From an uncultured Chloroflexia bacterium (lineage in GTDB: Bacteria; Chloroflexota; Anaerolineae; JAAYZQ01): 64,000 nt of DNA. Under the pieces are notes generated by a model that saw only the letters and a list, made by a program, of their open reading frames with translations, had not been told where the DNA came from and searched no databases. Made by a program: the position numbers and the translations under genes. Shown here piece after piece: positions 2,422 to 19,029 of the stretch. The stretch spans positions 1,152,001-1,216,000 of the forward strand of contig CAVOXA010000001.1 in assembly GCA_963700285.1 (NCBI GenBank), in the 5' to 3' direction. Within the stretch, counting starts at the first letter, position 1, and the number at the start of each line of letters is the position of its first letter.

Positions 2422-2540
2422 TTCTTCTCCTCCGTTTGGGTGACTGGTCAAGTTTTCCGAAGCTGGAGCAGTCTCCTATGTAGAAAGAACCTGTACTAGC
2501 CTCGCAAGGCTGCCCATTGCTCGTGCGCAGGATAGTGCCA

Positions 2541-3653
2541 TCAAGGGCGTCGTGGGGAGCCTCTGGCCCCCAGAAGGATAACCCCCAGAATCCTGAAGGG
2601 CCGCAGGTAACACAGTCGCAGGAAAGCGATGGTCAGGAGCAGAGTCAGAGCTGCGATAGTCAGGAACTCCAGACCTTCTGACAGAGCGGGCATGAACTTT
2701 TCCCAGAAGGAGACGAGGATCATCAGCACGGCGAGATGGGCGACATAGATGCCGAACACATCCTTCCCATATCCAGCAAGGTGACTCATGGTGCGACTTG
2801 CCCGTATGCGGTCCTCGAGCCCATAAAGAAAGGCGAGAAGCCAGGTTGCGGCAATGAACTGGAATGGCAAGCCACTTGGCAGGAAATAATCCCTGGCATA
2901 GGTCCCAAACTGCTCGAACTGTGCGCGCTCCATGACCAGGTAGGGTACGTAGGTAGCCACCGCCAAGAGAAGCAACCACCATTGGGCCCTCCTCAATCGT
3001 TCTAGTGCGGTGGGAGAGTAACCGAGCCACAGACCCCAGAAGAAAAAGACGGCCCAGGCGAAGAACAGTTTGCCATAGCGCCATTCGAAAGCATGCTGGT
3101 CGGAACCCTGTGTCCAGAGCAACCTTCCCGAAATCGCATAGAATGCAATGGAGCTGAGGGCCGACAGGAGCAAGCAAATGAGCAGCACCTTCCGGCTGAT
3201 GTGCTTGGCTAGCAGCGTGTAGAGAAGAAGGAACTGGAGCAGGACAAAGATATAGTAGAGATGTATGAATCCGGTTGTCAGGTTGAACAAGGTCTGCCCA
3301 TTGATGGCCAAATTGCCCTGCAAGGCTCCAAGAACAAACATGTACACGATGTTCCAGGCAAAAAAGGGCACGACGAGCGTGTGGAACCGGCGCTGCCAGA
3401 AACGCCTGGCGTCCAGGCGATAGTCCGGATCGCGGTGATGGAGGCCCAATACCAATCCCGAGATTATGAAAAACAGGGGCACGACAAAGCGGGCCAGCGG
3501 CGAGATGAGGGTGTACAGCCACGTGCTGTGCACGTCTGGCGCTGTAAGCCCGGCAGTATGCAACAGTACGACGACGACTATTCCGATGACCCGAGCTATC
3601 TCGATATAGCTTAGCCTTACCCTTGATGAAGCGGGATTCGTTTGGTTTTCCAT
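2541..3653 (-). CDS. Acyltransferase family 3 (OafA/YrhL-like) membrane protein
   Basis: YIEIARVIGIVVVVLLH, RFVVPLFFIISG, HLYYIFVLLQF and FGIYVAH motifs; about 10 hydrophobic segments; start at MENQ chosen. Confidence 0.85.
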   Translation of the reverse strand: MENQTNPASSRVRLSYIEIARVIGIVVVVLLHTAGLTAPDVHSTWLYTLISPLARFVVPLFFIISGLVLGLHHRDPDYRLDARRFWQRRFHTLVVPFFAWNIVYMFVLGALQGNLAINGQTLFNLTTGFIHLYYIFVLLQFLLLYTLLAKHISRKVLLICLLLSALSSIAFYAISGRLLWTQGSDQHAFEWRYGKLFFAWAVFFFWGLWLGYSPTALERLRRAQWWLLLLAVATYVPYLVMERAQFEQFGTYARDYFLPSGLPFQFIAATWLLAFLYGLEDRIRASRTMSHLAGYGKDVFGIYVAHLAVLMILVSFWEKFMPALSEGLEFLTIAALTLLLTIAFLRLCYLRPFRILGVILLGARGSPRRP

Positions 3654-3717
3654 GTGCCTGATCTCTTCTCCGTGCGGCGTTTCTGCCTGCTGCCAACCAA
3701 ACTTCATTGGTCAGCTT

Positions 3718-4974
3718 TCAAGGATCCACTCTGTCCGCGATGCCAATGCGGACAGGATCCGTCGTATAGTCAAAGACCGAGTAGTAGTGATCCAGAAAGA
3801 CGGAACCTGCCAGCAGCAACCGGGAAGTACTTGAGTTGTCTGTGGGCTGCAAGCCATGGAACGCCAAACGCCAGCCATCAGGAAACTCTTGAAAATACTC
3901 TTGGGCTGAGAGTGTGTATTCATTCCGACCCCTACCCTCGTCCACGAGTGCGATGGTGAGATCAGGATAGTCATCGAGAGCTGCCGGTTCATGCACTGCT
4001 TGGGGCCTGGCACCGTTGTCGGTGATTCGATTGACGATATCGTCCACCAGGGCCGGATCCCCCTTGAACCTTGAGGAACCCGTATCGAGGGCAAAAGCGG
4101 CCCCGCTTGAGGGTAGCGCTATTGGATCATCTCCGACCCTTATCTCACCCAATCTGACAGACCATAGGTCAGATGCGCTATCGGCAGAAGCTATGCCTCG
4201 GCTAACGGGATAGTATTTGAGGCTTGCTGGATCGTATCTTTTCTCGTTGAAGCCGCCGAGAACAACCTCTCCCCTGTTGAGTTCACGACTTGTCCAATAC
4301 GATACAAGTTTTCTATCCACCCATTCCTCTGCCAACAATAGATCCAGCAACTGGGTTGACATACCTTCCGCATTCACCGAGGGAAAGGCCAGCGAGCCAT
4401 CTTGAACCAGATCGTCCCAATTGGTGTTGGCGGTGCCGTCTGGGTTTTCTCCGTCTATCAGCGTCACAGCCTCCAGAAACCTCATGTCTGGAATGCTATA
4501 GAGCTGTTGGTCCTGCTTTCCACGGTGTGGACCGACCGCCCAGAAGTGCCAGGTATCTTGCCCGACCTTGAACTGGAACTTGCCCCATGGTCCCAATTCG
4601 CTGTCTCGTACCTGTTGATCGATCCAAACATGAGTTGCCGAGAGCTGTGGGTCGTAGCGACGGTGATGGCGGCACGGGTTGGTATCGCACTCTCGCGAGG
4701 TCACCCACGTGCTGCTCGTTCCAGTATCCATGATGAACTTGAACAACTGACCTGCCGAACCGGCATCGGCGGGGGATCCTCCACCTATGGCAAGCTCACC
4801 ATACCATGGTGAGGCACCGTTGTCTTTTGCTGGCCCCATGTGCAGCGAAATCACCAGTGCTTTGGTTCTGTTCGGCTCGATGGCAGAGCAGGAGGATATG
4901 GCCGTCAGTGCTGCGGCAATCAGGAAAAGCGCCGGAACCGGCCTGACTGCTGCCCTACCAAAGATTCTGCTCAT
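3718..4974 (-). CDS. Pepsin-like (A1) bilobed aspartic protease, probably exported or a lipoprotein
   Basis: Two catalytic motifs IMDTGTS and ALDTGSS; CxxxxC-HxxYDPxxSxT segment; C-terminal LLAGSVFLDHYYSVFDY; hydrophobic N-terminus ending in Cys. Confidence 0.85.
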   Translation of the reverse strand: MSRIFGRAAVRPVPALFLIAAALTAISSCSAIEPNRTKALVISLHMGPAKDNGASPWYGELAIGGGSPADAGSAGQLFKFIMDTGTSSTWVTSRECDTNPCRHHRRYDPQLSATHVWIDQQVRDSELGPWGKFQFKVGQDTWHFWAVGPHRGKQDQQLYSIPDMRFLEAVTLIDGENPDGTANTNWDDLVQDGSLAFPSVNAEGMSTQLLDLLLAEEWVDRKLVSYWTSRELNRGEVVLGGFNEKRYDPASLKYYPVSRGIASADSASDLWSVRLGEIRVGDDPIALPSSGAAFALDTGSSRFKGDPALVDDIVNRITDNGARPQAVHEPAALDDYPDLTIALVDEGRGRNEYTLSAQEYFQEFPDGWRLAFHGLQPTDNSSTSRLLLAGSVFLDHYYSVFDYTTDPVRIGIADRVDP

Positions 4975-5012
4975 CGGCTGCCCCCTTTTCCACGAGGAAC
5001 ACGTGCTCGCAG

Positions 5013-5225
5013 CTAGTAAATCTCTGGCATGTCGATCGGTGCTGGCTGCGGTTTGCAGACCCCGCAGTAGAGAGCGTCGGTAACTACCACGGCTTTGGGT
5101 GTCTCATTCTTGCCCACGAAAATGGTCAGGATGAATGGTTTCTTGGATACATGCTCCTTGCAGACGGCTCGTCCGCAGAAACGGCAGGTACCCTGAGCTG
5201 GTTGGTTGCACTGCCAGCAATTCAT
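5013..5225 (-). CDS. Small Cys-rich Zn-finger protein (DUF2180-like)
   Basis: MNCWQC...CRFCGRAVCKEH...CGVC; AGGAG RBS upstream. Confidence 0.7.
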   Translation of the reverse strand: MNCWQCNQPAQGTCRFCGRAVCKEHVSKKPFILTIFVGKNETPKAVVVTDALYCGVCKPQPAPIDMPEIY

Positions 5226-5374
5226 GTAAGCTCCTCGCTTTCTTCCGTCTTTTGCCCAGAACCTCTACGCTGAGTCGGTGTCGGAGCAGAACTATCCCTG
5301 GACAGAGGGTGCTGCGCCTCGCTCTATCCCGTTCGGATCGCTGGCTCCCTTGTTAGGGTAGGACCTCTTCAGGA

Positions 5375-6796
5375 TCAGAGTCGCAGATCGTTCTCTTTCT
5401 CAGCGCCCTGTGGCTGTGTTGTGAGGCTCCCACCCATGGTCAGGTCGCGGAGTACGTTTCCAGCCCAAGCCGCAGCGACAAACTCCTCATATGCAACGTG
5501 CTCTGGCTCCACGTAGTAAAAGCTCGAAAATACCTGGGGATAGTCCCGGATCATTCGATCCATTTCGGTGGTGCTCAAGTCCGCGAATCCAGTCGAGAAG
5601 GACGAGGGCACAGCGGCGAGTCTGAGCCGTGAGGCGTATCGTGTGGTGAACGGCGTCTTGGGCAATGGGGTCACCACTAGAATCTGGCTTCTGGCTGCAC
5701 CGATGCTCAGGAAGTGCTGGTGCAGTGAAAGGGTTTCCTGGAGGTCCTGCTTTGTCTCCCAGGGAAAGCCCACGACGAGAGAAGTTGTGACCCGGAACCC
5801 ATAAGCAGTTGCCGCCTCGACCGTTCTGCGCGCCTGTTCTACATCGAGATTCTTGCCGATACGCCTCTGTACCTGCTGGGAGCCGCTCTCGATGCCAAAG
5901 TAGATGTGCCGGCATCCTGCACTCTTCATATTCGCCAGCGCCTCGATGGGAAGGCTGTCTGGCCTGAGGTAACAGAACCAGGTCACCTCGTCGCCAGCCT
6001 CCATAGCATGAAGAAACTCGGCAAGCCAGTCCTCGTTTACAGCAAAGAGATCCTGTACGAGAAACACGTTCTTCAGCCCATAGCTGCGTACGAGCATCTG
6101 TAGTTGCTCAGCCAAAAGCCGCGGAGACTTCTGGCGCATTTGCCTGCGCCAGAAACCCGAAGTCGAGCAGAAGCAGCATCCGTGGGGGCACCCGCGTCCA
6201 GGTTCATAGGGAAGGAATCTGCCCAGGAGCGCTTCATCAAAGTGTGGATAGGCCCGATAGTCAGGAATCGCCAGGCAATCCAGATCGGGCAGCAGCGGAG
6301 CGGGCGGCGTCGAGAGGACCTTCCCATTAGATCGGTAGGTGAGGCTGGCTGCACTCTGAGGGTCCCTTCTGCCATCGATAACCTCTACTAGGCCGAGGAC
6401 GGCTCGTTCTGCCTCCCCCCGAACGACATAGTCGATCCAGGGAAAGGCCGCCATCGATTCCTCGGCTACGATGGATGCCTGCGACCCACCCAGGACGACT
6501 CGAGTCTGCGGCGAATGGCGTTTGACTTCCCTGGCCAAGAGCAGGACGAGTGGATAGCTGTTGCACATGGTAGAAAAACCTACCCAATCGGGCCCAGTCG
6601 CCACAATGTCAGCGGCCCAGCGGTCCAGGGCCGTATTGGTGTTGGTATTTCTGGAATCCCCCTGGCCAGGGTAATAGATCGTGCAATGATGTCCGGCGTT
6701 CGTAAGAACCTGATGTAGAGATAGGACGCCCAGTGGAAAATAGGGCGCCATCTTTTGCCCTTGGATGTCTGGGGCAGGTACTAGTACCACCTGCAT
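5375..6796 (-). CDS. B12-binding radical SAM enzyme (paralog D), putative RiPP C-methyltransferase
   Basis: N-terminal cobalamin-binding domain (PLGVLSL, VGFSTMCNS, VVLGG); CPHGCCFC motif; FGIESGS. Confidence 0.9.
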   Translation of the reverse strand: MQVVLVPAPDIQGQKMAPYFPLGVLSLHQVLTNAGHHCTIYYPGQGDSRNTNTNTALDRWAADIVATGPDWVGFSTMCNSYPLVLLLAREVKRHSPQTRVVLGGSQASIVAEESMAAFPWIDYVVRGEAERAVLGLVEVIDGRRDPQSAASLTYRSNGKVLSTPPAPLLPDLDCLAIPDYRAYPHFDEALLGRFLPYEPGRGCPHGCCFCSTSGFWRRQMRQKSPRLLAEQLQMLVRSYGLKNVFLVQDLFAVNEDWLAEFLHAMEAGDEVTWFCYLRPDSLPIEALANMKSAGCRHIYFGIESGSQQVQRRIGKNLDVEQARRTVEAATAYGFRVTTSLVVGFPWETKQDLQETLSLHQHFLSIGAARSQILVVTPLPKTPFTTRYASRLRLAAVPSSFSTGFADLSTTEMDRMIRDYPQVFSSFYYVEPEHVAYEEFVAAAWAGNVLRDLTMGGSLTTQPQGAEKENDLRL

Positions 6797-6981
6797 ACGC
6801 TCTTGCCTCCATTCGTTGCCGCTGGCTCAGATGCCCGTATCTTCAACGATGTGGGTCGCCATGCCGCACAAGCGCCAAAGCCGCCACTCATCTTCAATGC
6901 GAAAGTCATTCCAGGCCCGAGCTGGAGGAAGGGAGCATCCCTCCGGCTTCAGCCTTGCCGTTCTGCACTTCCCCTGCCAAC

Positions 6982-7212
6982 TCACATAGGGATTCCAACA
7001 AAATCCCAATGCGCTTCTTTCGTCAGCCTTTCATCGAGGTCTGTACTGAGGGCTTTCAGATCTCTTTCTTTGAGGGCAGCCATCTGCTTTTCTGTCAGGT
7101 CATAGCCAGCGTCCTTGACGGTTTTCTCCGGGTTCTCCACCAGGCTGGCCCGGAATTCAGGATCGGCCACCATCCGTCCGATCAGCTCGTGAATCTCTTT
7201 CTCAGTTGCCAT
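6982..7212 (-). CDS. NHLP-clan RiPP precursor 1 (core EAHWDFVGIPM)
   Basis: Leader IGRMVADPEFRASLVENPE...AGYDLT...LDERLTK; strong AGGAGGTG RBS; paralog of three other small ORFs. Confidence 0.85.
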   Translation of the reverse strand: MATEKEIHELIGRMVADPEFRASLVENPEKTVKDAGYDLTEKQMAALKERDLKALSTDLDERLTKEAHWDFVGIPM

Positions 7213-7388
7213 TTCGCTCACCTCCTTTCCTCGTTAGATGGTATTTGTTCAGGAGCCGCAGGGCAAGCTGCTCCCTGGGTCAGAGTTCACTGCGCCTCTG
7301 GCCAGCTTGCCCCCTGTCCTTGGTGAACGAGCTATGGACTGGCACTCTATTTCGGTGAGGTGAATTGCTCTCAGTTTCAGCCCCTTTT

Positions 7389-8798
7389 CTACTCTGTGCT
7401 ATTGGGCACTCTCCCTTCGCTGAGGTCACGCAGAGCATTGCTGGCCCAGGACGCGGCAACGAACTCCTCGTAGGAGACGAATTCCGGTTCCAAGTAATAG
7501 AAATTCGAAAAGATTTGAGGATATTGCCGGATCATCCTCTCCATCTCGGCGTTTCGGAAATCATCGAGGCCCCTCGACCAGGAGGAGAGCACAGGAGCAA
7601 GGGTGAGCCGTGAGGTACATTGGGTTGTCAAGGGTGTTTTGGGCAAGGGAGACAGCACATACATCTGGCTTCTCGCCACACCGATGCTCAGGAAATGCTG
7701 GTGCAGAGAGAGGGTCTCTTGGAGATCATCCGCTGTCTCCCAGGGAAAGCCCACAATGAAGGAGGTTACAACCCCCATACCACAGGCTACGGCTGCCTCG
7801 ATGGTCTTGCGTGCCCTGGCAAGGTCCACATTCTTTTGCAGTAGCGCCTGCACCCGTTGGGAACCGCTCTCGACGCCGAAAAAGATGTGTCTGCATCCCG
7901 CTCTGTGCATATCAGCCAGAGTGTGCGCGTCCACGCTGTCTGGGCGGAGAGCGCAGCCCCAGCTAACGGCGTCCTTCGCCTCAATAGCGCGAAGAAAAAC
8001 GGCCAGCCAGTCATGGTCCACGGCAAAAAGATCCTGCACCAAGGCCACGTTCTTTACCTGGTACCTGCGGGCCAGGTTCCCGATCTGTTCAGCCAGCAGG
8101 TAAGGAGTCTTCTGGCGCCGCCGGCGGCGCCAGAAGACAGAGGTCGAGCAGTAACTGCATCCGTATGGGCATCCGCGCCCCGCCTCCAAAGGCATGCTCT
8201 CATCTCTAGCACCATCATGTCCTCGAGTTAGTGCCTCGTCGAAGCGCGGATAGGCCCTGTGGTTTGGGACCGGCAAGGAATCGAGATCGTTCACCAGGGG
8301 CCTGAGTGGTGTCGACACAATCCTACCATCAGCTCGGAAGGTCAGACTGAGTACTGCATCCGGCTTCCGGCTCCCGTCCATCACCTGGACAAGGTCGAGG
8401 ATAGCTTGTTCTGCCTCTCCTCGAATGACATAGTCGATCCAGGGAAAGGCTCCCAACGACTCTTCGGCTACAGCTGAGGCCTGCGGTCCACCCAGCACGA
8501 CCGGTGTCTGTGGAGAAAGGTGTTTCACTGCCTTTGCCAGGAGCAGAATCAGCGGATAGGTATCGCACGTGGTCGAGAAACCCACACAATCGGGTTCTGC
8601 CGCCACGATTTCAGCCGCCCAGCGGTGTATGGCCACGTCGGGCTCGGCTGGTTCAGGCAGATCTTGGCCCGGATAGTAGATGGTGCAGCCGAATCCAGCG
8701 TCACATAGTATTTGGTTGAGTGAAAGCGCACCCAGTGGAAAGTAGGGCACCGGCCTGCGCTGCCGGAGGTGTAGGGCAGGCACCAGCACGATATTCAT
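7389..8798 (-). CDS. B12-binding radical SAM enzyme (paralog C)
   Basis: B12-binding N-terminus; CPYGCSYC; overlaps the stop of the upstream paralog (ATGA). Confidence 0.9.
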   Translation of the reverse strand: MNIVLVPALHLRQRRPVPYFPLGALSLNQILCDAGFGCTIYYPGQDLPEPAEPDVAIHRWAAEIVAAEPDCVGFSTTCDTYPLILLLAKAVKHLSPQTPVVLGGPQASAVAEESLGAFPWIDYVIRGEAEQAILDLVQVMDGSRKPDAVLSLTFRADGRIVSTPLRPLVNDLDSLPVPNHRAYPRFDEALTRGHDGARDESMPLEAGRGCPYGCSYCSTSVFWRRRRRQKTPYLLAEQIGNLARRYQVKNVALVQDLFAVDHDWLAVFLRAIEAKDAVSWGCALRPDSVDAHTLADMHRAGCRHIFFGVESGSQRVQALLQKNVDLARARKTIEAAVACGMGVVTSFIVGFPWETADDLQETLSLHQHFLSIGVARSQMYVLSPLPKTPLTTQCTSRLTLAPVLSSWSRGLDDFRNAEMERMIRQYPQIFSNFYYLEPEFVSYEEFVAASWASNALRDLSEGRVPNSTE

Positions 8799-10243
8799 AA
8801 ACTCTTGCCTCCACCGATTGATGACGACCCCAGCGCTTCTTCATCAGGTTGTACGCGAGTCTGTGCTGCAACCTGTTCCCCTTTGCTGCATCTATACAGA
8901 GCATTACCAGCCCAAGCCGCAGCAGCAAACTCCTCATGCGGGACGAATTCTGATTTCACATGATAGAAGCTCGAGAAAATCTCAGGGTATTGCCGGATCA
9001 TTCGCTGCATTTCGGCCGTTCGAAAGTCTTCGAGCCCCATCGACAAGAACGATGGTAGAGGGGCAAGGGAGAGCCTTGAGGTGTATTGAATTGTGAGCGG
9101 CGTCTTGGGCAACGGACACAGCACATAGACCTGGCTCTTTGCCACACCGATGTCTAGAAAATGCTGGTGCAGGGAGAGAGTTTCCTGAAGATCTTGCCTT
9201 GTCTCCCAGGGAAAGCCCACAATGAACGAGGTGATGACCCCCATACCATAGGAGACTGCTGCTTCGATGGTCTCGCGCGTCCTGGTCAGGTCCAGGTTCT
9301 TCTGCAACCGCTTCTGTACGCGTTGGGAACCGCTCTCGACACCAAAGAAAACATGTGTGCATCCTGCTCGATACATATCGGCCAGGGTCCGCGCGCCAAC
9401 GCTGTCTGGTCGGAGACGACAGGTCCAGGTTGCCCTGTCACCAGTCTCCATGGCTCCAAGGAAGGCGCCCAGCCAGTCGCGGTCCAGGACAAGGAGATCC
9501 TGGGCCAACAGCACGTTTTCCACCTGGTACCTGCGGACAATCATCCCAAGCTGGTCAGCCAGCAGGTCTGGCGACTTCTGACGCATACGTCTGCGCCAGA
9601 AGTCAGAGGTGGAGCAGAAGCTGCACCCATAAGGACATCCGCGTCCAGGTTCGAAAGGAATGAAATCATCCAGCAGTGCTTCGCGGAAATAGGGATAGGC
9701 CTGGTAGTCAGGCAATGCCAGGGAATCCAGCTCGGTCAATAGTGGCACAAGGGGTGTTGAAACGATCTTCCCATTTGCTCGGTATGTGATACTGCCTGCT
9801 CCTTGTGGTTCACTCCCGTGTTCGATTACCTGGACAAGGCCGAGGACAGCCTGTTCTGCCTCCCCCCGAACGATATAGTCGATCCAGGGAAAAGCGGCCA
9901 TCGACTCCTCGGCCACGACCGAGGCCTGTGGTCCGCCCAGGACCACGGGCGTCTGTGGCGACAAATGCTTCACCGCCCTGGCCAGGAGCAGAATCAGGGG
10001 ATAACTGTTGCACACAGTTGAAAACCCCACCCAGTCAGGCTCTGCCGCCACGACTTCAGCCGCCCACTGGCGTATGGCCATATCGGTCTCGGCTAGATCG
10101 CCTGCATGCAGGTGCGGATAGTAGATGGTGCAATCGTGCCCGGCGTCCGACAGTACCTGGTGTAGAGACAGAACTCCCAGTGGGAAGTAGGGCATCGTCC
10201 TTCGCCCTTTGATGTGTGGCGCAGGTACGAGAACCACGTGCAT
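8795..10243 (-). CDS. B12-binding radical SAM enzyme (paralog B)
   Basis: B12-binding N-terminus; CPYGCSFC; FGVESGS. Confidence 0.9.
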   Translation of the reverse strand: MHVVLVPAPHIKGRRTMPYFPLGVLSLHQVLSDAGHDCTIYYPHLHAGDLAETDMAIRQWAAEVVAAEPDWVGFSTVCNSYPLILLLARAVKHLSPQTPVVLGGPQASVVAEESMAAFPWIDYIVRGEAEQAVLGLVQVIEHGSEPQGAGSITYRANGKIVSTPLVPLLTELDSLALPDYQAYPYFREALLDDFIPFEPGRGCPYGCSFCSTSDFWRRRMRQKSPDLLADQLGMIVRRYQVENVLLAQDLLVLDRDWLGAFLGAMETGDRATWTCRLRPDSVGARTLADMYRAGCTHVFFGVESGSQRVQKRLQKNLDLTRTRETIEAAVSYGMGVITSFIVGFPWETRQDLQETLSLHQHFLDIGVAKSQVYVLCPLPKTPLTIQYTSRLSLAPLPSFLSMGLEDFRTAEMQRMIRQYPEIFSSFYHVKSEFVPHEEFAAAAWAGNALYRCSKGEQVAAQTRVQPDEEALGSSSIGGGKSL

Positions 10244-10306
10244 ACGCTCATGCCTCCATTGCTTGCTGACGGATCAGGTATACCTTTCTAGGAATACAAC
10301 CGCACT

Positions 10307-10420
10307 TGTCATTCTGAGGAGCGAGCGCAGTGAGCGACGAAGAATCTCGGCTGCGCCCAGCTATCAGTTTCTCGCCATGTAACCGGGATTCTTTGCTCTA
10401 TTCAGTCGCCCAGAATGACA
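10307..10420. repeat. REP/REPIN-like palindromic element
   Basis: TGTCATTCTG (10307-10316) ... AGAATC (10341-10346) is mirrored by GATTCT (10387-10392) ... CAGAATGACA (10411-10420). Confidence 0.65.
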
Positions 10421-10503
10421 CACGGCTTGGACTGCGGTCGTAGTACTAGATGCACGCCAAGGTCTTCATTCGCTTGCCATTCGGTAGTCATGCCGGGCCA
10501 GAA

Positions 10504-10531
10504 CTGGAAGAGGGGTGCTCCCCTCTTCCAG
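10504..10531 (-). terminator. Perfect 12-bp hairpin downstream of precursor 2 (attenuator or mRNA-stabilising stem)
   Basis: CTGGAAGAGGGG-TGCT-CCCCTCTTCCAG; related stems follow the other three precursors; no strong U-tract. Confidence 0.6.
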
Positions 10532-10568
10532 CCCCAGGTATGCACCGCCAGTTCCTCTTGCTGACCTA

Positions 10569-10805
10569 CTAGAAGATAAAGGGGACACCGAGAAAGTCCC
10601 AATGCGCTTCCTTGGATAGCCTTTCATCCAGATCTGTGCTGAGGGCTTTCAGGTCCCGGTCCTTGAACGCAGCCATTTGCTCTTCGCTCAGATCATAGCC
10701 CGCGTCCTTGATTGTTTTCTCCGGGTCCTCGACCAGGCTGGCCCGGAACTCGGGATCGGCCACCATTCGTCCGATCAACTCGTGAATCTCCTTCTCAGTT
10801 GCCAC
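10569..10805 (-). CDS. NHLP-clan RiPP precursor 2 (core EAHWDFLGVPFIF)
   Basis: GTG start after AGGCGGTG; leader nearly identical to precursor 1, ending LDERLSK. Confidence 0.85.
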   Translation of the reverse strand: MATEKEIHELIGRMVADPEFRASLVEDPEKTIKDAGYDLSEEQMAAFKDRDLKALSTDLDERLSKEAHWDFLGVPFIF

Positions 10806-10924
10806 GTCGCTCACCGCCTTTCTCCATAAGATAGTGTATCCTCGGACATCGGCAATCAAGATGCGCCCATAGGCAGAGGATACGGTGTCTCTGCCTGTCC
10901 GGCCTCCGATCCGTGGCTCGCTCG

Positions 10925-12418
10925 CTACGGATCGACTCGCTCCCCGGCAAGCGAGCCGGGGGCAGAGCTTCTTGAGTGAGGCGAATCACTTACATGCTTT
11001 GCACCTGTTCGTGCCTGTGGTACAGGGTCTTCCCCCTTGCTCAGAGTACACAAAGCATTGCCTGCCCAGGCCGCGAGACGGAACTCTACGTGCGGCACAA
11101 ATTCTGTTTCAATATGGTAGAAGCTTGAAAAGATCTGCGGGTAGCGCCGAATCAAACCATCCATTTCGGCGTTCCAGAAGCGTTCCATCTCCCTCGGCGC
11201 GACCGACTGTGTGCTGTCAATCCTGAGCCTCGAGGCGTAGCGGGTTGTGATCTCGGTCTTGGGCAACGGAGAAAGTGGATAGATCCGGGCGCTATCCACA
11301 CCAGTATCCAGGAAATGCTGGTGCAGGGAAAGGGTATCCTGGAGATCCTGCCTTGTCTCCCAGGGAAAGCCCACAATGAGAGAAGTGGTAACGCTTATCC
11401 CTGTAGCAACGGCTGCCTCGACAGTCTTGCATACTTGCGAAACGTCGAGGTTTTTGCCCATACGCTGTTGCACCCGCTGTGAACCGCTATCCACACCGAA
11501 AAAGATCTGTCTGCACCCCGCCCGATTCACAGCGGACAGCTCCTCTGGTTCAATGCTGTCTGGTCGAAGATAGCAGCCCCAGCTCACTTTGCCGCAAGCT
11601 TCCATAGCCTGAAGAAAATCAGAAAACCAGCCCTTGTTCACGGCAAAGATATCCTGCACCAAGAACACAGATCCTACTCCTTGGCTATGGGCGAGCGCCT
11701 CTAGCTGTGCTGCCAGCAAACCTGGCGACTTCAGACGCATGCGCCTGCGCCAATAGTCTGAAGTCGAGCAAAAGCAGCATCCATAGGGGCATCCGCGCCC
11801 AGGTTCAAAAGGCAGCAATCCATCCTCGAAAGGGGGCTTCCCGCCCAGGAGCGCTTCACGGAAGTATGCATAAGCCTGGTAGTCAGGTAGCGTCAGGGAA
11901 TCGAGATCGCTCAACAGTGGCACGAGGGGTGTGGAAACGACATTGCCGTTGACCCGGTGCGTGAGACTACCTGCTTTTCCCGACCCACTCCCTTTTCCGA
12001 TTACCTGGACCAAGTCGAGAATAGCGTTCTCTGCCTCCCCCCGGACAACATAGTCAATCCAGGGGAAAGCCGCCATCGACTCCTCGGCCACGACGGACGC
12101 CTGTGGTCCACCCAGGACGACCCATGTTTGTGGGGATAGCTGCTTCACCGCTCGGGCCAGGAGCAGAACGAGTGGATAGCTGTTGCACATGGTCGAAAAA
12201 CCCACCCAATCGGGCTGTGTCGCCACGATGTCAGCCGCCCAGCGCCCGATGGCTGCTTCGGGGTCGGCTGGGTTGGCAGCATCCTGGAGCGGGTAGTAGA
12301 TCTTGCTATCGTAGCCTGCGTCAGCTAGCACCCGGTGTAGAGACAGGACGCCCAGCGGGAAATAGGGCGCTATCCTACGCTCCTGGATATGTGGCGCGGG
12401 TACCAGTACTACATGCAT
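10925..12418 (-). CDS. B12-binding radical SAM enzyme (paralog A)
   Basis: B12-binding N-terminus; CPYGCCFC; FGVDSGS. Confidence 0.9.
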   Translation of the reverse strand: MHVVLVPAPHIQERRIAPYFPLGVLSLHRVLADAGYDSKIYYPLQDAANPADPEAAIGRWAADIVATQPDWVGFSTMCNSYPLVLLLARAVKQLSPQTWVVLGGPQASVVAEESMAAFPWIDYVVRGEAENAILDLVQVIGKGSGSGKAGSLTHRVNGNVVSTPLVPLLSDLDSLTLPDYQAYAYFREALLGGKPPFEDGLLPFEPGRGCPYGCCFCSTSDYWRRRMRLKSPGLLAAQLEALAHSQGVGSVFLVQDIFAVNKGWFSDFLQAMEACGKVSWGCYLRPDSIEPEELSAVNRAGCRQIFFGVDSGSQRVQQRMGKNLDVSQVCKTVEAAVATGISVTTSLIVGFPWETRQDLQDTLSLHQHFLDTGVDSARIYPLSPLPKTEITTRYASRLRIDSTQSVAPREMERFWNAEMDGLIRRYPQIFSSFYHIETEFVPHVEFRLAAWAGNALCTLSKGEDPVPQARTGAKHVSDSPHSRSSAPGSLAGERVDP

Positions 12419-12605
12419 GCTCTCTTACTCCAGTTCTTGCTGAAGGCTCAACTGCCCCTTCTTGGAACTTGCGGGCTTGCATCCTGCGCAGCAGCCGTGA
12501 GCCTGTTCCCTTCAGATTCGAAAGCTATTTAGAGCCAGGGGTGGAGGAGGGGAGCCCCCCTCCATCCCCAGGATTGCTGCAGCAGGTTGCGCGTACCAGC
12601 GCCCA

Positions 12606-12842
12606 CTACCAGGTCGGGTTCGTGCCAACCCCGCCGAATCCGACCTCCTTAGACAGTCTGTCGTCCAGATCTGCGCTAAAGCCTTCCAGGTCTACTTTCT
12701 TGAGTGCAGCCAGTTGCTCTTCCGTCAGATCATAGCCAGCGTCTTTCACTGCCTTTTCGGGGTCCTCCATCAGGCTGGCCCGGAAATCAGGGTCGGCCAC
12801 CGTTCGGCCGATCAGCTCGTGTATCTCTTTCTGCGTTGCCAT
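12606..12842 (-). CDS. NHLP-clan RiPP precursor 3 (core EVGFGGVGTNPTW)
   Basis: MATQKEIHELIGRTVADPDFRASL...LDDRLSK; GAGGTG RBS. Confidence 0.85.
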   Translation of the reverse strand: MATQKEIHELIGRTVADPDFRASLMEDPEKAVKDAGYDLTEEQLAALKKVDLEGFSADLDDRLSKEVGFGGVGTNPTW

Positions 12843-13113
12843 TTCGCTCACCTCTTTTCTCCCTCTGATGGCAAATGCTTCAGAAGCTGAGAGCAAGGTG
12901 CAACCGGAATCAGAGAACGCTACCTTTCCGCCCATCTTGCCCCCAAGCTCAGGCTCCTCGCCGGGGAAAGGCGCCCAGAATCAGAACAGCAGATTGCTTC
13001 CGAATCCACTAGGACCGATTCGCCCCAAGTCACCCTCTCAACGCTAGGCCCTGCCGAAGAAGGAGAGCCTCCCCTCCGGCGCAGGCTTGCTTTGGCGGAC
13101 AATGCAGAGTGCT

Positions 13114-13350
13114 CTACGGCCAGGGCGCGATTCCAACCTCACCTACTCCGACTTCCTTGGACAGTCTGTCGTCCAGATCTGCGCCAAGATCCTCCAGGTC
13201 CGCTTTTTTCAGTGCCGCCAGTTGCTCTTCTGTTAGATCATAGCCGGCCTCCTTCACCGCCTTTTCCGGGTCCTCCACCAGGCTGGCCCGGAACTTGGCG
13301 TCGGCCACTGCACGGCCGATCAGCTCGTGAACCTCCTTCTCAGTTGCCAT
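13114..13350 (-). CDS. NHLP-clan RiPP precursor 4 (core EVGVGEVGIAPWP)
   Basis: MATEKEVHELIGRAVADAKFRASL...LDDRLSK; AGGAGGTG RBS. Confidence 0.85.
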   Translation of the reverse strand: MATEKEVHELIGRAVADAKFRASLVEDPEKAVKEAGYDLTEEQLAALKKADLEDLGADLDDRLSKEVGVGEVGIAPWP

Positions 13351-13386
13351 TTCGCTCACCTCCTTCCTCCGTTGGATAGTATGCGC

Positions 13387-14436
13387 TCAAGAATCAAGCG
13401 GCAAGATGCTCCCGGGCTCTAGGGACATGTGCCCTCCTCTCATCTTGCTGCCAGTTCCAGGTTGCCCTACGGGGACAGGCGGTTTGGGGATCAGAGCGGC
13501 GAATTGCTCCCGAATCCATTCCGTGCGCCTGGCTTCGAGATCTACGCTCAACTGTCTGGCAGCCTCGTCACGGAGCGCTAGGTACGCTTCCAGGTAGGGA
13601 ACAGCCAGAGCAGAAGCGCTTTCCAGCGCCCGCCGGCGGTATTCCGCAATCAGTCCCAGATACTCATCCAACACTGCGCCGGCAAACAGAGCCTTCTCTA
13701 CGTCAGTCTCAGTCAGTGTGGTGTGAGGGTCGAGTCTGCGATGAGCTAGCACCCGGGTGAGGAAATAGGTATAGCTTCCCTGCGCCAGGTCACCGCGCCA
13801 ATCCTGCAGATCATCAGCCAGCAGAAAGGACATCATCAAGTCGTCTATCATCTTTTCCAGGAGCTCAGTGGCTTCCTTTCGCCCGGCCAGCAAGCACAGT
13901 GCCGCGCAGGAGATCTTTAGTGGGGCGGCTTTGCGTGCCAGGAGAATCAGATCTGCTTCCTCAAAGGCGCGCACCTGCCCCCAATGCCACTGCCGCTCCC
14001 ACGAAATGCTCAGTCCCCACTGGGCGATGTATTCCTCAAAAAGCGCCCAAAACGCTGGCTCGGAGCCGAAAACGCGGTGATACGGCGCCAGCGCATCGAG
14101 AAGAAGAAAGGTAGCCAGTGGTTGGAGATGCCCCTCGTACTCCTCAGGCTCGGCATCCATCAGCTCGTCCTGCAGCATGAAATAGAGCACCAGGAAGGTA
14201 CTGCTCAGGCCTACCAGACGGCAGACATTGCGATCCAGGGCAAGGGGCTCCTCCAGCCAGAAGGGCAACAGATATGCGATGTGAAAGGCCCGAGGCATCT
14301 TGTGTTCCAGTGACCACTGATCCTCAAGGCGAGCCCGTCCGGGCTGGCGCAGCGCCGGTGGATACGTGGAGATGCGCTCCAGACAGGCATCCAGCAACCA
14401 CTTACACTCCCGGTCAAAGTCACGAATTGGGTCCAT
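13387..14436 (-). CDS. Class I isoprenoid synthase/prenyltransferase-fold protein (ComQ-like candidate)
   Basis: Helical protein with two Asp-rich motifs, LQDELMD and ADDLQDW, and a RKAAPL segment between them. Confidence 0.65.
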   Translation of the reverse strand: MDPIRDFDRECKWLLDACLERISTYPPALRQPGRARLEDQWSLEHKMPRAFHIAYLLPFWLEEPLALDRNVCRLVGLSSTFLVLYFMLQDELMDAEPEEYEGHLQPLATFLLLDALAPYHRVFGSEPAFWALFEEYIAQWGLSISWERQWHWGQVRAFEEADLILLARKAAPLKISCAALCLLAGRKEATELLEKMIDDLMMSFLLADDLQDWRGDLAQGSYTYFLTRVLAHRRLDPHTTLTETDVEKALFAGAVLDEYLGLIAEYRRRALESASALAVPYLEAYLALRDEAARQLSVDLEARRTEWIREQFAALIPKPPVPVGQPGTGSKMRGGHMSLEPGSILPLDS

Positions 14437-15889
14437 GTTGCCCTCCGGCTTGCGATCTCCTGGTGCTGCGGCTTCGGAGAAAGCAGCGTACCCGGTGAGC
14501 GCCCTCGCCGGCCAACAGAAGCGCTTTGGTGGTCAGTCCCAGGATAAGGTTTGCGCCGGCCACCAGCATCAGCCCACCGACGAGGATGATGGGCAGGACG
14601 TCTTTGCCGCTGACCAATTCCCCTTCCATCTGAGCTATCTCTCTGTACCAAAGGTACACGGCCATGACCACAGCGAAAGCCGTCCAGGCAGCCGCTAGAA
14701 TGCCAAAGACGGCAAAAATCCTCTGTTCGTGGCTGAACTTGCTCCACCCCTTGAACAGCTTGGTCGGCAATTCCTCCCGGACGAAGGCCAACGATCTCTT
14801 GCGCAGCATGGGTATCTCTACCCAGTCCACCAGGGCGTAGTAGCCATCCAACTCCAGGAGCGGATTTACATTCATCAGGGCTCCAAAGTAGCCTATCAGG
14901 GCTGCTTTGAACAGAACCCCATTGAAGGCGAAGGAGGGAAAGAGACCAGCTACCACCGCCAGCAGGCTGCCCAGCAGCAGCGTTGTGAACGGGCCGGCCA
15001 GCGAAACCAGGATGCGAGCCCGCTTGGGTGCCATCCAGATATCCGTGGTATCCACAAAGAAGGCGGGCGAACCCATGTAAAGCATCAGCCCCCCTTTGGG
15101 CACTCGACGGCCATACTGCTTGCATGTCAGGGCGTGACCGCACTCGTGAAAGAACGTCATCACATAGTAGAGCGCCAGCAAGATAACCAGGCCCAGGCCA
15201 AAGGAACCGGCCGCGCTGAGCAGGGGATAGTTGCCGGCCAGCAGCTCCCGTGCGAAGAAGACCAGCCCGGCTACGATCACCAGCCCGTACAGGATCCTGG
15301 CCGGGCGCGTGAATAGCAGCCAGCCCCCCCACCGGTAGAGCGAATCGAAGAACCCATCGGCGTTTTTCAGGCTGAACTCCCTCTGAGCGGATCTTTCGGA
15401 GAAGCGTTGGAGTCGGTGGGCCAGGGTGTGGGCAGCAAGCTGCTCCTCGATGCATTGGAATAGGTCCACCGGCTTTTCCGCCAGGAATTGGTGCGTGCCA
15501 AGCTCCGTGAGGAGATTGGCCAGTCGCTCAAAGGGAAAGGCCCCGAATTCTGAGTAGTAGGCCATGGCCAGGTCGCTGACAGAGTGCTCGCCATCCATGA
15601 GCCCCCACAGTAAGTAGTCGCGGGCGTCGACCTTAAGGTAGGTGTCCGCCCTTGGGTTGTTCAAGACATAGTATGCCTCCCCTTGGGCGTTTTGGTGGCA
15701 CGACACCTCGACGCCGGTCACGCCCTTGGGCTTCTTCATGGAGGGGTCCAGCCCTTCCTGCAGGATCGCCCACAGGTCGACCGCCGTTGATCTCTCCTCT
15801 GCGGTCGCCTGCTGCAATCGCATCCACATGGTGGAGGCTGGTGTACCCTCTTCTGCCACCCCGTTCTCTTCTTTCTGCAATAGATTCAT
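14420..15889 (-). CDS. M50 (site-2) membrane zinc metalloprotease with N-terminal PqqD/RRE-like domain
   Basis: HECGH zinc motif; NVNPLLELDGYY; AGPF; N-terminal YYVLNNP...YLLWGLMDGEHSVSDL winged-helix-like segment. Confidence 0.8.
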   Translation of the reverse strand: MNLLQKEENGVAEEGTPASTMWMRLQQATAEERSTAVDLWAILQEGLDPSMKKPKGVTGVEVSCHQNAQGEAYYVLNNPRADTYLKVDARDYLLWGLMDGEHSVSDLAMAYYSEFGAFPFERLANLLTELGTHQFLAEKPVDLFQCIEEQLAAHTLAHRLQRFSERSAQREFSLKNADGFFDSLYRWGGWLLFTRPARILYGLVIVAGLVFFARELLAGNYPLLSAAGSFGLGLVILLALYYVMTFFHECGHALTCKQYGRRVPKGGLMLYMGSPAFFVDTTDIWMAPKRARILVSLAGPFTTLLLGSLLAVVAGLFPSFAFNGVLFKAALIGYFGALMNVNPLLELDGYYALVDWVEIPMLRKRSLAFVREELPTKLFKGWSKFSHEQRIFAVFGILAAAWTAFAVVMAVYLWYREIAQMEGELVSGKDVLPIILVGGLMLVAGANLILGLTTKALLLAGEGAHRVRCFLRSRSTRRSQAGGQHGPNS

Positions 15890-15971
15890 CCCCACTTCCA
15901 GTCGGGCGACCTTTGCCCCACAGGCTCATGTCTCCAGGCGTACAACCCCGCTGGATGCCGGCTCGTTCGGG

Positions 15972-16533
15972 CTAAGACAGCATGATGAGGACACTAATGC
16001 CGGTGCCCAAGGTACCAAGCGCGCCAAACACTAGCCCCACAGTCCAGAGGAACTTGCGCTCAGTCCCGATGGCCATCCCGCCCAGGGTAATGCCAAGGGC
16101 GAGCAACGCTACGGCGATCGCAAAGACCTCATGGGCATTGGCAGAGACACGAACCATCTCCTCTTCGCTGGCCGTGCTGGCCTTCAACTCCCTCGTTCTG
16201 TCCTCAAGTGCTGCCACCTTCTCGATCTCGGCCGGGTCTGGCGCTTTTTCCCAGGATGGTCAGGAGCTCGTGCTTGGACGTGAGCGTCTTCACATACTCG
16301 CGGTCGCTCTCCAGACGATCAACCCCGATGATCTCTTGGGTTCTGTCCAGTAAGGCTCTGTTGGCGGTCATACCCGCCAGCAAGCCTCCAAGTGCGGCCA
16401 GTAGGGGCATGATCAGCGTGGTCAGGGCGACATGTCGGTGCCACCTGGGTTCTTCCGGCCCCACTTCTCGCAACTCTACTGCCTCCACAACTGCATCCTG
16501 TGCCGTCTCTGCCATTTCTGTCAGTTCAGACAT
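15972..16533 (-). CDS. DUF4337-like membrane protein (frameshift near 16245)
   Basis: VALTTLIMPLLAAL N-terminal TM and FAIAVALLALGITLGG C-terminal TMs split between ORFs 16204-16533 and 15972-16217. Confidence 0.6.
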
Positions 16534-16580
16534 CGTGCCTCATTGACTCTCCGCATGATGATGATACGACGTCAGGGCGT

Positions 16581-18028
16581 TTACTCTTCTCCTGCCGTGA
16601 ACAGCGCCCAGGGCTGGGTTGGCCGGTCCTTGAGGTAGCCCTCCAGGTGGTCCCACTGCGGATGTTCGATGAGATGCTCGTCGGCGTCAAAGGCCATGCC
16701 GCTGGAACTGCCCCAGCGGGCCCAGAAGCTGAGGTCTGCGGCCAGGTCGCTGTCCATGACCTTGCCGTCCACTGCGCCCTGGGGCGCGTAGGGCAGCCGC
16801 GCGGGCCAGTACTCAAAGGCGTCCAGCTCGTAGTGGCCCTCGATGGTGCGCGAGCCGGGGTTGGTCTTTTTCAGATAGACGTCATAGTGGTCGGCGATGA
16901 TCTTTTTGGCGTTCTTGATATCGATCTTGCCCTTGTACTGCTCCATGAGCTGGGTCAGGCGCACGCGCCGGGCGCCCGCCGGCATCCGGATGTCGTCGTA
17001 GCCGGTGTTGGCGCACTCCAGGTTGCGGATCTGGGGGTCGATCGGGCGCGTTAAAGCCGACATAGTAGCCGTCCTTGGTGCGCTCGACGGCCGAGAACTT
17101 GAGGCCCAGTTCGAAGCGCATGATCTCGCCCGTGTTCCGGTCGGCCAGCAGCCAACTGTTGGCATAGCCGCCGTTGTTCTCCTTCTTCATCAGCGTCCAC
17201 CCAACCGTCGAGATCGTCGGCATACTGCATGGCCCGGCGCACCCGAAGGAACTCGGGTACCTCGTCGGCGTCGTATTGGCTGTAGCCGCCGATGGTGGTC
17301 TCGGTGCCCATCAGGCCGGCGTCGGTCACGAAAAAGTCGGTAAAGCTGGCGATGAGCCCCGGCATGCTCTGCATGAACATGCGGTGGCCTTCAGCCGGCT
17401 GGAGGTCCAGGATCTCGTTCATGTACTGGCCGTGAGTGAAATGGTCCCAACTGTTGTGGGCCATCACGATATCACCATCCCGGGTGTAGGAACCGGTAGC
17501 GACAAAGGCGCTGCAGTGGTCCTGGTCCTGCGGCACGTACTGGCCGTACCACTGGGACTGCTCGTTGGGCCACCAGTAGCCGACCAGTTCCTCGTAGCCG
17601 TTCCAGGTCAGGACCTCTTGCCAGGTGATATCGGTGCCGGCCTCCTGGGCGCCTTCGGCAATGCCCCTCATCTCCTCCTGTAGCTCCTCGTCGAGATGTT
17701 TGACGAACTGTTCCTGCGCCTGCTCGACAAAGAACTCCCACTCCATGCCGGTGTCCATGAAGGTCAAGTCCTTTGTGTTGGCCAGGATCTCGGCCAGCTC
17801 CGGCGCCACCAGGTAGCCGTACTGGAAGCCCCGCTCGTAGGGTTCGCCCTCGATGTGGATATAGATCCAGCCATCCTGTTCGAGGCGGTAGCCCTTGCCG
17901 TCGGGACTGGTCTGGCGCTCTTCGGAGCGGGCCGTGGGTAGCGATGTGGCCGATGACGATAACACCAGTACCACAAGTAGGGCTAGAATCACGCTGGCCA
18001 TTCCAACCTTCAATCCGCGGGTCTTCAT
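16581..18028 (-). CDS. C45 family / phospholipase B-like Ntn-hydrolase, secreted (about 2 frameshifts near 17200 and 17050)
   Basis: Signal peptide; GEPYERGFQYG; nucleophile HCSAF; NNGGYANSW; pieces lie in three frames. Confidence 0.75.
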
Positions 18029-19029
18029 ATCTTGCCTCCTGAAAAGTATAACGTCTCGGCGTTCTTCCGAGCGAGTTTTTGTCTGGTCTCTTTGGGCAGA
18101 TGTGAAAGCAGGCCATTGTAGCGCGCCATCGTCCTGGCATGAATGGCAAAATGACCGCAGACATCGCTGCCCAGCATGATGCGGTCGGGATACTTGAGCA
18201 CAAGATCGATCCAGCACTGTTTCGGGCTAAGCCGCTCATCATCACGTTGCCGGGGTTCGCAGATCGTTTGTTCGTAGACCACCCACGAGAGATCGACGTA
18301 CAGGTTGGGGTAGCGATCCATCATGCAATCGATCATGGTGTGATAGTCTCTGTGCGTCACCCTGCGCGAAATCCCGCAATGACCCCAGACAATCGTGGTA
18401 TCCCGATGACGCTCCAGGGTTTCGGTTAGTTCGTGCAGATAGACATACTCGTCGTGAACACCTACTGAAGTGCTGTTCTGGTGCAGGCAGATGGGGAGTC
18501 TCTTCGAGGCACAGAACTCGTAGATGGGATCCATGGCTGGGTGGTTGGCCCTGGCCGTTTCGCCCAATGTCAGGTTGGTGAGGTCGTCGTGCCGGAAAAA
18601 GACCTCGCCCACCCCAGCCCAGAATGGATACTTGGCGTACATCGATTCGACATAGTCGATCGCGGTACTGTCGGTCGGATCGAAGGCGCAGACCATGGGA
18701 GCAAATCTCGCCTGCTGCTCCGGAGCCAGGCTTGCGTAATGCTGCGCAACGATCTCGTCGGACGCCGAATAGTGGTAGCAGCGAGCATTGTCGCCCAGGT
18801 AGTAGGTTGGCTTGTAGGGCTCATAGTGCTCCCACTTTTTCTTGACCGGCAGGCCAAAGACCACCGCCTTCAGGATGTTGCCCTGCTCCATTGAACGCAG
18901 GAGCTGCTCAAAGCCATCCGTGTTCTGCAGGAAATCGACAAAGTGCAGGTGCATGTCAATGACCGGCTCACTGGCCCTGTCGTCGGGATACTGCTGGATC
19001 TTGGTCTCAAACTCGTGGTGAAAGCTCAT
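18025..19029 (-). CDS. Amidohydrolase family (TIM-barrel metal-dependent hydrolase)
   Basis: DMHLH, GVGE, WGHCG, DLSW and LGSD motifs. Confidence 0.85.
   Translation of the reverse strand: MSFHHEFETKIQQYPDDRASEPVIDMHLHFVDFLQNTDGFEQLLRSMEQGNILKAVVFGLPVKKKWEHYEPYKPTYYLGDNARCYHYSASDEIVAQHYASLAPEQQARFAPMVCAFDPTDSTAIDYVESMYAKYPFWAGVGEVFFRHDDLTNLTLGETARANHPAMDPIYEFCASKRLPICLHQNSTSVGVHDEYVYLHELTETLERHRDTTIVWGHCGISRRVTHRDYHTMIDCMMDRYPNLYVDLSWVVYEQTICEPRQRDDERLSPKQCWIDLVLKYPDRIMLGSDVCGHFAIHARTMARYNGLLSHLPKETRQKLARKNAETLYFSGGKI

Follow-up and report, generated by a model that had tools for sequence, protein, structure and literature searches.

The trans-isoprenyl diphosphate synthase-like (trans-IDS-like) enzymes that prenylate peptides target Trp in all characterized cases, according to a 2026 review, and for two of them, ComQ and ChrPC, the target is an internal Trp (PMC13290415). 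In Paenibacillus alvei, the published PalQ/PalX/PalP layout includes the enzyme PalQ and its peptide PalX, with the core DNVRRFFW; Gln197 of PalQ was modelled on the indole NH, and residues placed after the Trp abolish activity (PMC10853753). Among the cobalamin (B12)-dependent radical S-adenosylmethionine enzymes (rSAMs) that act on peptides synthesized ribosomally and then modified post-translationally (RiPPs), ApyD, which contains a RiPP recognition element (RRE), makes beta-methyltyrosine (PMC11117315), three bottromycin paralogues share out the methylation of Phe, Val and Pro (PMC11285071), and PbsB cross-links aromatic residues and needs phenolic rings (PMC12257519). Daptide leaders are removed by MpaP, an RRE-site-2 protease (PMC10036551). 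Here we analyze a gene cluster at positions 5375-15889 of a 64,000-nucleotide stretch, referred to as the window, of an uncultured Chloroflexia bacterium (assembly GCA_963700285.1, contig CAVOXA010000001.1, positions 1,152,001 to 1,216,000). Its nearest relatives with names belong to Anaerolineae, and the class of the host was deduced from them. We are inclined to read it as a system in which precursors of the nitrile hydratase-like leader peptide (NHLP) clan are likely prenylated on Trp by a PalQ-like enzyme, likely C-methylated by ApyD-like rSAMs, and likely released as lipopeptides of 11-13 residues by an RRE-fused M50 protease. The direct basis of this reading consists of genes, families, fold, motifs and co-occurrence, from which we infer all of the chemistry.

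The prenyltransferase and its precursor peptides

The cluster consists of ten intact open reading frames (ORFs), which share the minus strand and follow one another as M50, iso, pre4, pre3, rSAM A, pre2, rSAM B, rSAM C, pre1 and rSAM D. Sequence searches with the 349-amino acid product of iso (13387-14436) against Pfam, NCBIfam and PDB returned nothing significant, and its fold and homologue walking were needed to place it. The structural model (predicted local distance difference test, pLDDT, 88) found polyprenyl diphosphate synthases as top Foldseek matches at TM scores of about 0.6-0.7, the best being 3oyr (E 2e-4, TM 0.63). The isoprenoid synthase fold with its aspartate-rich motifs, the first (FARM) and the second (SARM), is present, and QDxxxD and (Q/L)xxDDxxDW are conserved in the alignment of 38 of the 41 homologues found. 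One of the P. alvei proteins, P0169, shares 26% identity with the cluster's enzyme over 235 amino acids (E 9e-28), and the D90/D94 and D208/D212 motifs are in register with the P. alvei proteins. Four proteins of the P. alvei group have K39, D89, D93, Q197, D200 and D204, which match the published numbering of PalQ; they were equated with PalQ by species and residue numbering, not by accession. At locus L057, a protein 98% identical to a P. alvei protein lies beside a peptide ending in GVRRFVW and a histidine kinase, thereby reproducing the enzyme-peptide-kinase arrangement published for PalQ/PalX/PalP (PMC10853753). Judged by homology, the isoprenoid-synthase-fold enzyme of the cluster is a homologue of PalQ.

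The two enzymes differ at a position of interest. Leu205 stands opposite Gln197 of PalQ, so that there is no Gln three residues before SARM. In a quick tree without bootstrap, the enzyme falls in a 35-row clade (support 98) that belongs, together with the Paenibacillus clade, to one 50-row group; 8 of the 35 proteins have Leu in place of Gln. A clade of 22 rows has Val here, and its precursors still mostly end in Trp; no common partner gene was found at the Val-type loci among the neighbours inspected (53 chosen from 109 listed ORFs plus six long ones). A divergent prenyltransferase clade with the motif QMxDDLFDW (L093, L094, L095 and L101-L103) adjoins peptides that have hardly any core and lack Trp, for which a different acceptor is possible. 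The host genome has matches to CobS and to polyprenyl synthase, both of the latter in two pieces.

The four precursors pre1 (6982-7212), pre2 (10569-10805, GTG start), pre3 (12606-12842) and pre4 (13114-13350) have 76, 78, 78 and 78 amino acids, respectively. All four pass the Os1348 NHLP-clan model NF038399 (69.4, 71, 76.8 and 77.9 bits in the same order; cut-off 40) as well as PF14407 (48.7, 51.8, 54 and 58.6; cut-off 48), and they reach 18.6-21.5 bits on the classical NHLP leader model TIGR03793, far below its cut-off of 50.9. Since both models are passed in every case, a Shine-Dalgarno-like stretch (GGAGG/GGCGG/AGAGG-TGAG) precedes each gene, and the pre1 and pre2 leaders differ by 19 synonymous versus 7 non-synonymous codons, the precursors are real beyond chance. 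Their leaders contain 15-17 Asp or Glu versus 9-11 Lys or Arg and have neither GG nor Cys; the single GG of pre3 lies within the tail. The tails that follow RL[ST]K, 11-13 residues long, are the predicted cores EAHWDFVGIPM (pre1), EAHWDFLGVPFIF (pre2), EVGFGGVGTNPTW (pre3) and EVGVGEVGIAPWP (pre4). Each includes one Trp, which is internal in pre1 and pre2 (both W-x-F), penultimate in pre4 and C-terminal, as in PalX, only in pre3. A core identical to that of pre3 was found in contigs of runs X3 and X4, and one nearly identical to that of pre4 adjoins a prenyltransferase in L034. Os1348-type leaders fused to repetitive Gly-rich tails of 180-320 residues were also seen (L179:1351-2616, L183:1405-2658 and L184).

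A first-pass annotation, made by a model from the letters and translated reading frames, had described several of these features. The gene order and shared strand, the acidic common leader without a GG motif, the 76-78-residue peptides with 11-13-residue tails, and the combination of NHLP-clan precursors and B12-rSAMs with a prenyltransferase-fold enzyme and an RRE-M50 protease were all borne out by the ORF positions, the profile searches (including the NHLP-clan assignment of every precursor), and the fold results. It overlooked that every core has a Trp, that the RRE region is missing from all four rSAMs and that Gln is changed to Leu in the prenyltransferase.

The family profile of the prenyltransferase detected 79 metagenome loci and matches in 27 of the 301 genomes of the host's class, the host included; NF038399 peptides over the cut-off occur in 86 of these 301 genomes. 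A complete NHLP-clan ORF on the same strand lies within 1 kb of the prenyltransferase at 74 of 104 family loci, a set from which own-genome and short duplicate loci were left out and in which some duplicates remain; many of the other 30 loci end close to the gene. Trp is found in the last 12 residues of 54 of the 62 distinct tails beside a prenyltransferase (within the last 3 in 46). The corresponding count at loci without a prenyltransferase is 6 of 31, these control peptides coming from loci picked by NF038399, with flanks of mostly 1.5 kb, and from two other loci of the host genome.

The radical SAM enzymes and the array

The rSAMs A (10925-12418, 497 amino acids), B (8795-10243, 482), C (7389-8798, 469, its start overlapping the stop of rSAM B by 4 nt) and D (5375-6796, 473) are mutually 59-68% identical. 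All four have the Cx3Cx2C motif (CPYGCCFC in rSAM A, CPHGCCFC in rSAM D) and the B12-binding and Radical_SAM Pfam domains over the cut-off, which are class B features. The best NCBIfam model for each was that of ApyD (NF050148; 228, 255, 247 and 258 bits for A to D), not the RiPP C-methyltransferase model TIGR03975 (125-139 bits). TIGR03975 and BchE taken together gave 124-139 bits, and the hopanoid methylase models HpnR and HpnJ gave 67-85 and 94-120 bits. The ApyD matches stop at profile positions 434-454 of 645 (26-434 in rSAM A), and the proteins end soon after.

The best 120 of the 434 homologues found include a clade of 21 at 51-100% identity, whose full-length members have 460-497 amino acids; the other 99 share 34-40% identity and have a median length of 689. 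Weak C-terminal PqqD/NGO1945_C matches at E<0.1 were obtained for 11 of 18 long proteins versus 0 of 6 short ones. On the basis of the 21-member clade, the identity gap and the restriction of RRE-region matches to the long proteins, the short form is, as alignment has it, a family trait without the leader-binding RRE domain. Individual frameshifts were rejected as an explanation because the short form is shared across the clade. The model of rSAM B (pLDDT 91) is ordered to about residue 460 and disordered after 461, and in a structure search it folds like MgmA, TsrM and TokK, the best structural matches being B12 methyltransferases. Contacts of folded NHLP and Nif11 leaders with enzymes can lie outside an RRE (bioRxiv 10.64898/2026.10.04.756588), which offers one route by which RRE-less rSAMs may engage a precursor. 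The short clade was not found in 300 genomes of the class (one 38% relative) or in 400 of the phylum (two distant matches at 217 bits); the scan of the genome collection relied on two patterns that occur in only 11 of the 21 short-clade proteins, which makes its negative a weak one.

A B12-rSAM match was present at only 6 of the 99 prenyltransferase loci L033-L131, many of them short; two of the six are one sequence and two are TIGR03975-type. L037 holds a prenyltransferase with Leu, a precursor with the pre1-related core EAHWNFAGIFY, and the first part of a short-clade rSAM that is 82% identical to rSAM A over 111 amino acids, the precursor lying between the two enzymes. L137 and L138 contain an RRE-M50 protease, a precursor with the core GCDWICYGY(Q/K)W, a prenyltransferase with Gln, a SPASM-type rSAM (annotated in L138), and a B12-rSAM of another branch (37% identical, 593-600 amino acids against the median of 689 for long relatives) that precedes a weak squalene-cyclase-like gene. 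The close rSAM relatives with context (L037, L137 and L138) therefore adjoin small peptides of this kind, in line with the coupling that the first-pass annotation had proposed and not with routine occurrence away from them. The L138:3535-12725 and L137:359-9037 clusters are richer than the one studied here, with a Cys2/Trp2/Tyr2 precursor and, in L138, two YydG-like rSAMs; they are candidates for a cyclised-isoprenoid RiPP. Another locus, L045:2768-14837, combines an M50 protease, two prenyltransferase homologues, an rSAM, a precursor ending in CWGKAQHICGWD, a YcaO, an FHA protein and two TIGR03975 methyltransferases.

The contigs of runs X3 and X4, which come from one study, have the M50 gene, a prenyltransferase gene with 88% DNA identity to that of the cluster, and pre3 with an unchanged core; pre4 is absent. 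They run into a single rSAM remnant in which the first 185 codons are missing and A-like sequence is joined to D-like sequence, a junction to be read with care because such joints were made at 80% likeness. This suggests that the array can collapse through recombination and, at the level of gene content, shows that the rSAMs are dispensable beside pre3. Because this relative keeps the protease, the prenyltransferase and pre3 with a deleted rSAM, and because so few prenyltransferase loci have a B12-rSAM, the rSAMs are regarded as accessory and the conserved unit, as seen by comparing loci, is the prenyltransferase plus its precursor. This reverses the emphasis that the first-pass annotation had placed on the rSAM array.

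The spacers between each precursor and the next gene are homologous. According to RNA folding, done with no shuffle control, and alignment of the four spacers, each contains a G+C-rich hairpin: 6920-6948 after pre1, 10498-10537 after pre2 (18 pairs), 12538-12569 after pre3 and 13053-13080 after pre4. The last has no U tail and was not called in the terminator scan; it is a possible mRNA-stabilising element. Promoter and terminator scans gave 1 hit versus 3.3 expected by chance and 9 versus 9.8, at or below chance. DNA similarity extends across whole units (69% between 6989-8806 and 10582-12426) and, together with the homologous spacers, leads us to infer that the array grew through tandem duplication of a precursor-hairpin-rSAM unit. 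An assembly artefact was rejected, as the paralogues are only 68-73% identical in DNA. A short palindromic element is inserted between pre2 and rSAM B (10300-10350); it has 3 matches in the genome and is also matched by many unrelated metagenome contigs, and it is probably a mobile repeat.

Protease, proposed pathway and alternatives

The M50 gene (14420-15889) encodes a site-2-type intramembrane metalloprotease of 489 amino acids, in which HECGH at 248 and NVNPLLELDG at 340 preserve the HExxH and NxxPxxxLDG motifs; it has five hydrophobic segments. Its RRE is a weak PqqD match (E 0.016, residues 74-124), and it scores 168 bits on the daptide_HExxH model (cut-off 300). The protein is likely the leader peptidase. 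Elsewhere in the same genome, at L001:4638-12479 (G000:C14) and L002:6996-13239 (G000:C5), a Crp regulator and PF14407 peptides accompany large RRE-M50 proteases (1141 and 1163 amino acids) fused to two cyclic nucleotide (cNMP)-binding domains; no tailoring enzyme was found among the ORFs scanned there. L001 also includes an HD protein and a cNMP-SpoIIE phosphatase, and L002 an M16 peptidase. The same fusion occurs beside a prenyltransferase in L066 and, in part, in L173. Loci such as L001 and L002 look like a cyclic-nucleotide-gated peptide signalling module, and it is because of these cNMP-fused proteases and of the histidine kinase beside PalQ that a putative signalling role is favoured.

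In the proposed pathway, the prenyltransferase would bind the folded leader and modify Trp with the help of Mg and of a prenyl diphosphate, which, if PalQ is a guide, would be C5-C15; PalQ-type systems are defined in part by transferring the prenyl group to C3 of the indole. The precursor pre3, with its terminal Trp, would be a PalX-like substrate, and the internal Trp of pre1 and pre2 would need ComQ/ChrP-like access; Leu205 in place of Gln may alter the position or the regiochemistry of prenylation. Very probably, at least one of the cores is prenylated on Trp. In the rSAMs, a 5'-deoxyadenosyl radical would abstract H and methylcobalamin would give the methyl group. These enzymes probably C-methylate mainly the EAHW-type cores, the most likely sites being C-beta in aromatic residues (His, Trp or Phe) or Val, Ile or Pro, with each paralogue taking its own site, as in bottromycin; being RRE-less, they could bind the folded leader directly or act on the peptide bound to the prenyltransferase. 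Cleavage is expected near RL[ST]K, where conservation ends. In the weakest step, the products would likely serve as membrane-associated signals resembling ComX.

Several observations weigh against this pathway. The residue proposed as the indole NH binder in PalQ is replaced, the C-terminal Trp that PalQ requires is found only in pre3 of the four cores, and 8 of the 62 peptides adjoining a prenyltransferase have no Trp. The Trp counts are not independent, since the loci are related and the peptide profile was iterated on them, and the control flanks are short. All of the rSAMs miss the ApyD cut-off (228-258 versus 750 bits), so that their reaction is not assigned. The only outside locus that gives context for the short clade, L037, is a 1425-nt contig; 32 of the 34 rSAM matches in the genome collection are distant (22-31%) and have no precursor beside them; and the X3/X4 relative lost the 5' end of its rSAM yet keeps pre3. 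Finally, the 18 ORFs scanned in the window (27 to 19029) include no identified exporter or receptor.

The B12-rSAMs could also be cross-linking enzymes, as the analogy with PbsB indicates that such proteins can join aromatic residues. Aromatic-x-aromatic motifs are found in the cores beside intact rSAMs (W-D-F in pre1 and pre2, W-N-F in L037, Y-G-Y in L137 and L138) and are absent from those of pre3, pre4 and L038. This distribution fits benzylic C-methylation or, less well because PbsB needs phenols, C-C cross-links of the PbsB type, which would add small macrocycles at W-x-F/Y-x-Y to prenylated peptides. PbsB, likened here by its published description and not by sequence, does cross-link such motifs (PMC12257519), but W-D-F has no phenolic ring, ApyD meets a Y-L-Y motif yet methylates (PMC11117315), and a single cross-link needs no four paralogues; we regard this outcome as unlikely. 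No better placed is the idea that, with Leu205, the prenyltransferase no longer acts on Trp and is an inactive scaffold on which the rSAMs are offered the peptide, or uses another acceptor such as His, giving products that are only methylated or are prenylated elsewhere. The Gln-to-Leu change is derived and is shared by L037, the sole outside short-rSAM locus; nevertheless, both Asp motifs are intact, the Val clade keeps mostly Trp-ending precursors, and the X3/X4 relative retained the enzyme and pre3 after losing the rSAM.

The absence of the RRE region from all four rSAMs could instead mean that they recognise a lipid mark and not the leader, adding methyl groups, after prenylation, to the isoprenoid chain or to the ring of the prenylated Trp. 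The rSAMs of L137 and L138, also shortened and followed by a squalene-cyclase-like gene, would agree with this, as would the strict dependence of PbsB on an earlier modification (PMC12257519). Hopanoid methylase models score far lower than ApyD, and folded leaders can engage enzymes independently of an RRE (bioRxiv 10.64898/2026.10.04.756588), which makes this proposal improbable. Even less credible is an array of truncated duplicates inactive on peptides, with only prenylation and cleavage taking place. About 200 C-terminal residues are missing relative to the long forms, and one relative carries a deleted copy, but the four frames are intact with full Cys motifs and 59-68% identity, the model of rSAM B is compact and confident, and full-length homologues of 460-497 amino acids from several sources stop at the same motif. 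Tailoring of the peptide by both enzyme types, through prenylation and C-methylation, is the reading retained. A bolder version of it is doubtful: a Gln-less PalQ relative would prenylate internal Trp with altered regiochemistry, RRE-less rSAMs would recognise the prenylated or enzyme-bound peptide and each contribute, at a site of its own, a methyl group or an aryl cross-link, and a recombining cassette array would diversify a peptide signal in anaerobic Chloroflexota.

Other genes border the cluster. Just downstream and co-oriented lies the gene of an aspartyl protease of the pepsin type (PF00026) that likely has a signal peptide (3718-4974), and directly after rSAM D a 70-amino acid Cys-rich ORF (CxxC...CxxC; 5013-5225) has no NCBIfam match at 1e-8. 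A DPP-IV/S9 peptidase gene (27-2451), a DUF4337 gene (15972-16533) and a C45/phospholipase-B-like gene (16581-18217) are each apparently split over two frames; these appear to be frameshifts or assembly errors.

Comparison with described systems

A radical SAM epimerase is a feature of polytheonamide-type proteusin clusters. No YcaO, lanthionine enzyme, epimerase, C39 peptidase or exporter was found by NCBIfam and Pfam among the 18 ORFs, in agreement with the first-pass annotation as regards the first three, and an assignment as a lanthipeptide or azole RiPP was rejected. A proteusin was likewise rejected, given the low TIGR03793 scores (18.6-21.5 versus 50.9), leaders without GG and the lack of a long core and of an epimerase. 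The cluster shares with the bottromycin enzymes RMT1-3 and with PoyB/PoyC a set of several B12-rSAM paralogues, which here would likewise divide the sites of peptide C-methylation; it differs from them in that YcaO, a follower peptide, an epimerase and a long core are all absent, and the Cx7Cx2C motif described for PoyC is replaced by Cx3Cx2C (PMC11285071). Like daptide clusters, it pairs several similar precursors with an intramembrane site-2 protease that carries a fused RRE, as in MpaP. Nonetheless, the protease falls short of the daptide cut-off (168 versus 300 bits), the Dmp enzymes are absent, and the cores end in M, F, W and P instead of the invariant Thr (PMC10036551), for which reasons a daptide was rejected as well.

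Each part of the system has precedent, so that the surprise is moderate. A literature search found nothing on a trans-IDS-like peptide prenyltransferase together with B12-rSAMs, on ApyD relatives that lack the RRE, or on clusters of this type in Anaerolineae; most subscription literature lay outside that search, and related clusters may be tabulated there. The interest of the locus lies in its compactness, as four precursors and four paralogous B12 enzymes of 469-497 amino acids could reveal site selectivity and leader recognition without an RRE. It would also bring a large pool within the host's class, so far unexplored, into the range of PalQ-type Trp prenylation, and it tests whether selection of Trp needs the Gln proposed for it. 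Peptide engineering has a use for enzymes that attach lipids to internal Trp or add C-methyl groups to short peptides.

The rSAMs are closest to ApyD of the aminopyruvatide pathway, compared here through profile NF050148 and the published description: it is the best profile match of all four, with B12 and rSAM domains and an aromatic-rich short core in common. The differences are the sub-cut-off scores, the absence of the RRE region, of an MNIO, of a P450 and of a C-terminal Asp, and a precursor of another family (PMC11117315). The ChrPC prenyltransferase-cyclase RiPPs and ComQ/ComX, compared by their description in a review and not by sequence, offer a trans-IDS-like enzyme acting on internal Trp, as pre1 and pre2 would need (PMC13290415); unlike in ChrPC, no cyclase gene is present among the 18 ORFs, and only the weak squalene-cyclase-like gene of L137/L138 recalls one. 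The nearest precedent is PalX/PalQ, with an NHLP-type precursor, a short Trp core, a non-GG cut (T72/D73 in PalX) and a homologous trans-IDS-fold prenyltransferase with its motifs in the same register (PMC10853753). It differs in the low identity (26%), the Gln at position 197, a longer leader than the Os1348-type leader found here, and a histidine kinase in place of four B12-rSAMs and an RRE-M50 protease, as well as in the non-terminal Trp of three of the four cores here. The first-pass annotation had proposed an undescribed class; given this precedent and the homologous enzyme, the cluster does not represent a new one. A defining feature fails in each comparison, and the cluster is therefore not assigned strictly to the family of PalQ, of ApyD, of proteusins or of daptides. 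By analogy, the system would work like PalQ/PalX with ApyD-like tailoring.

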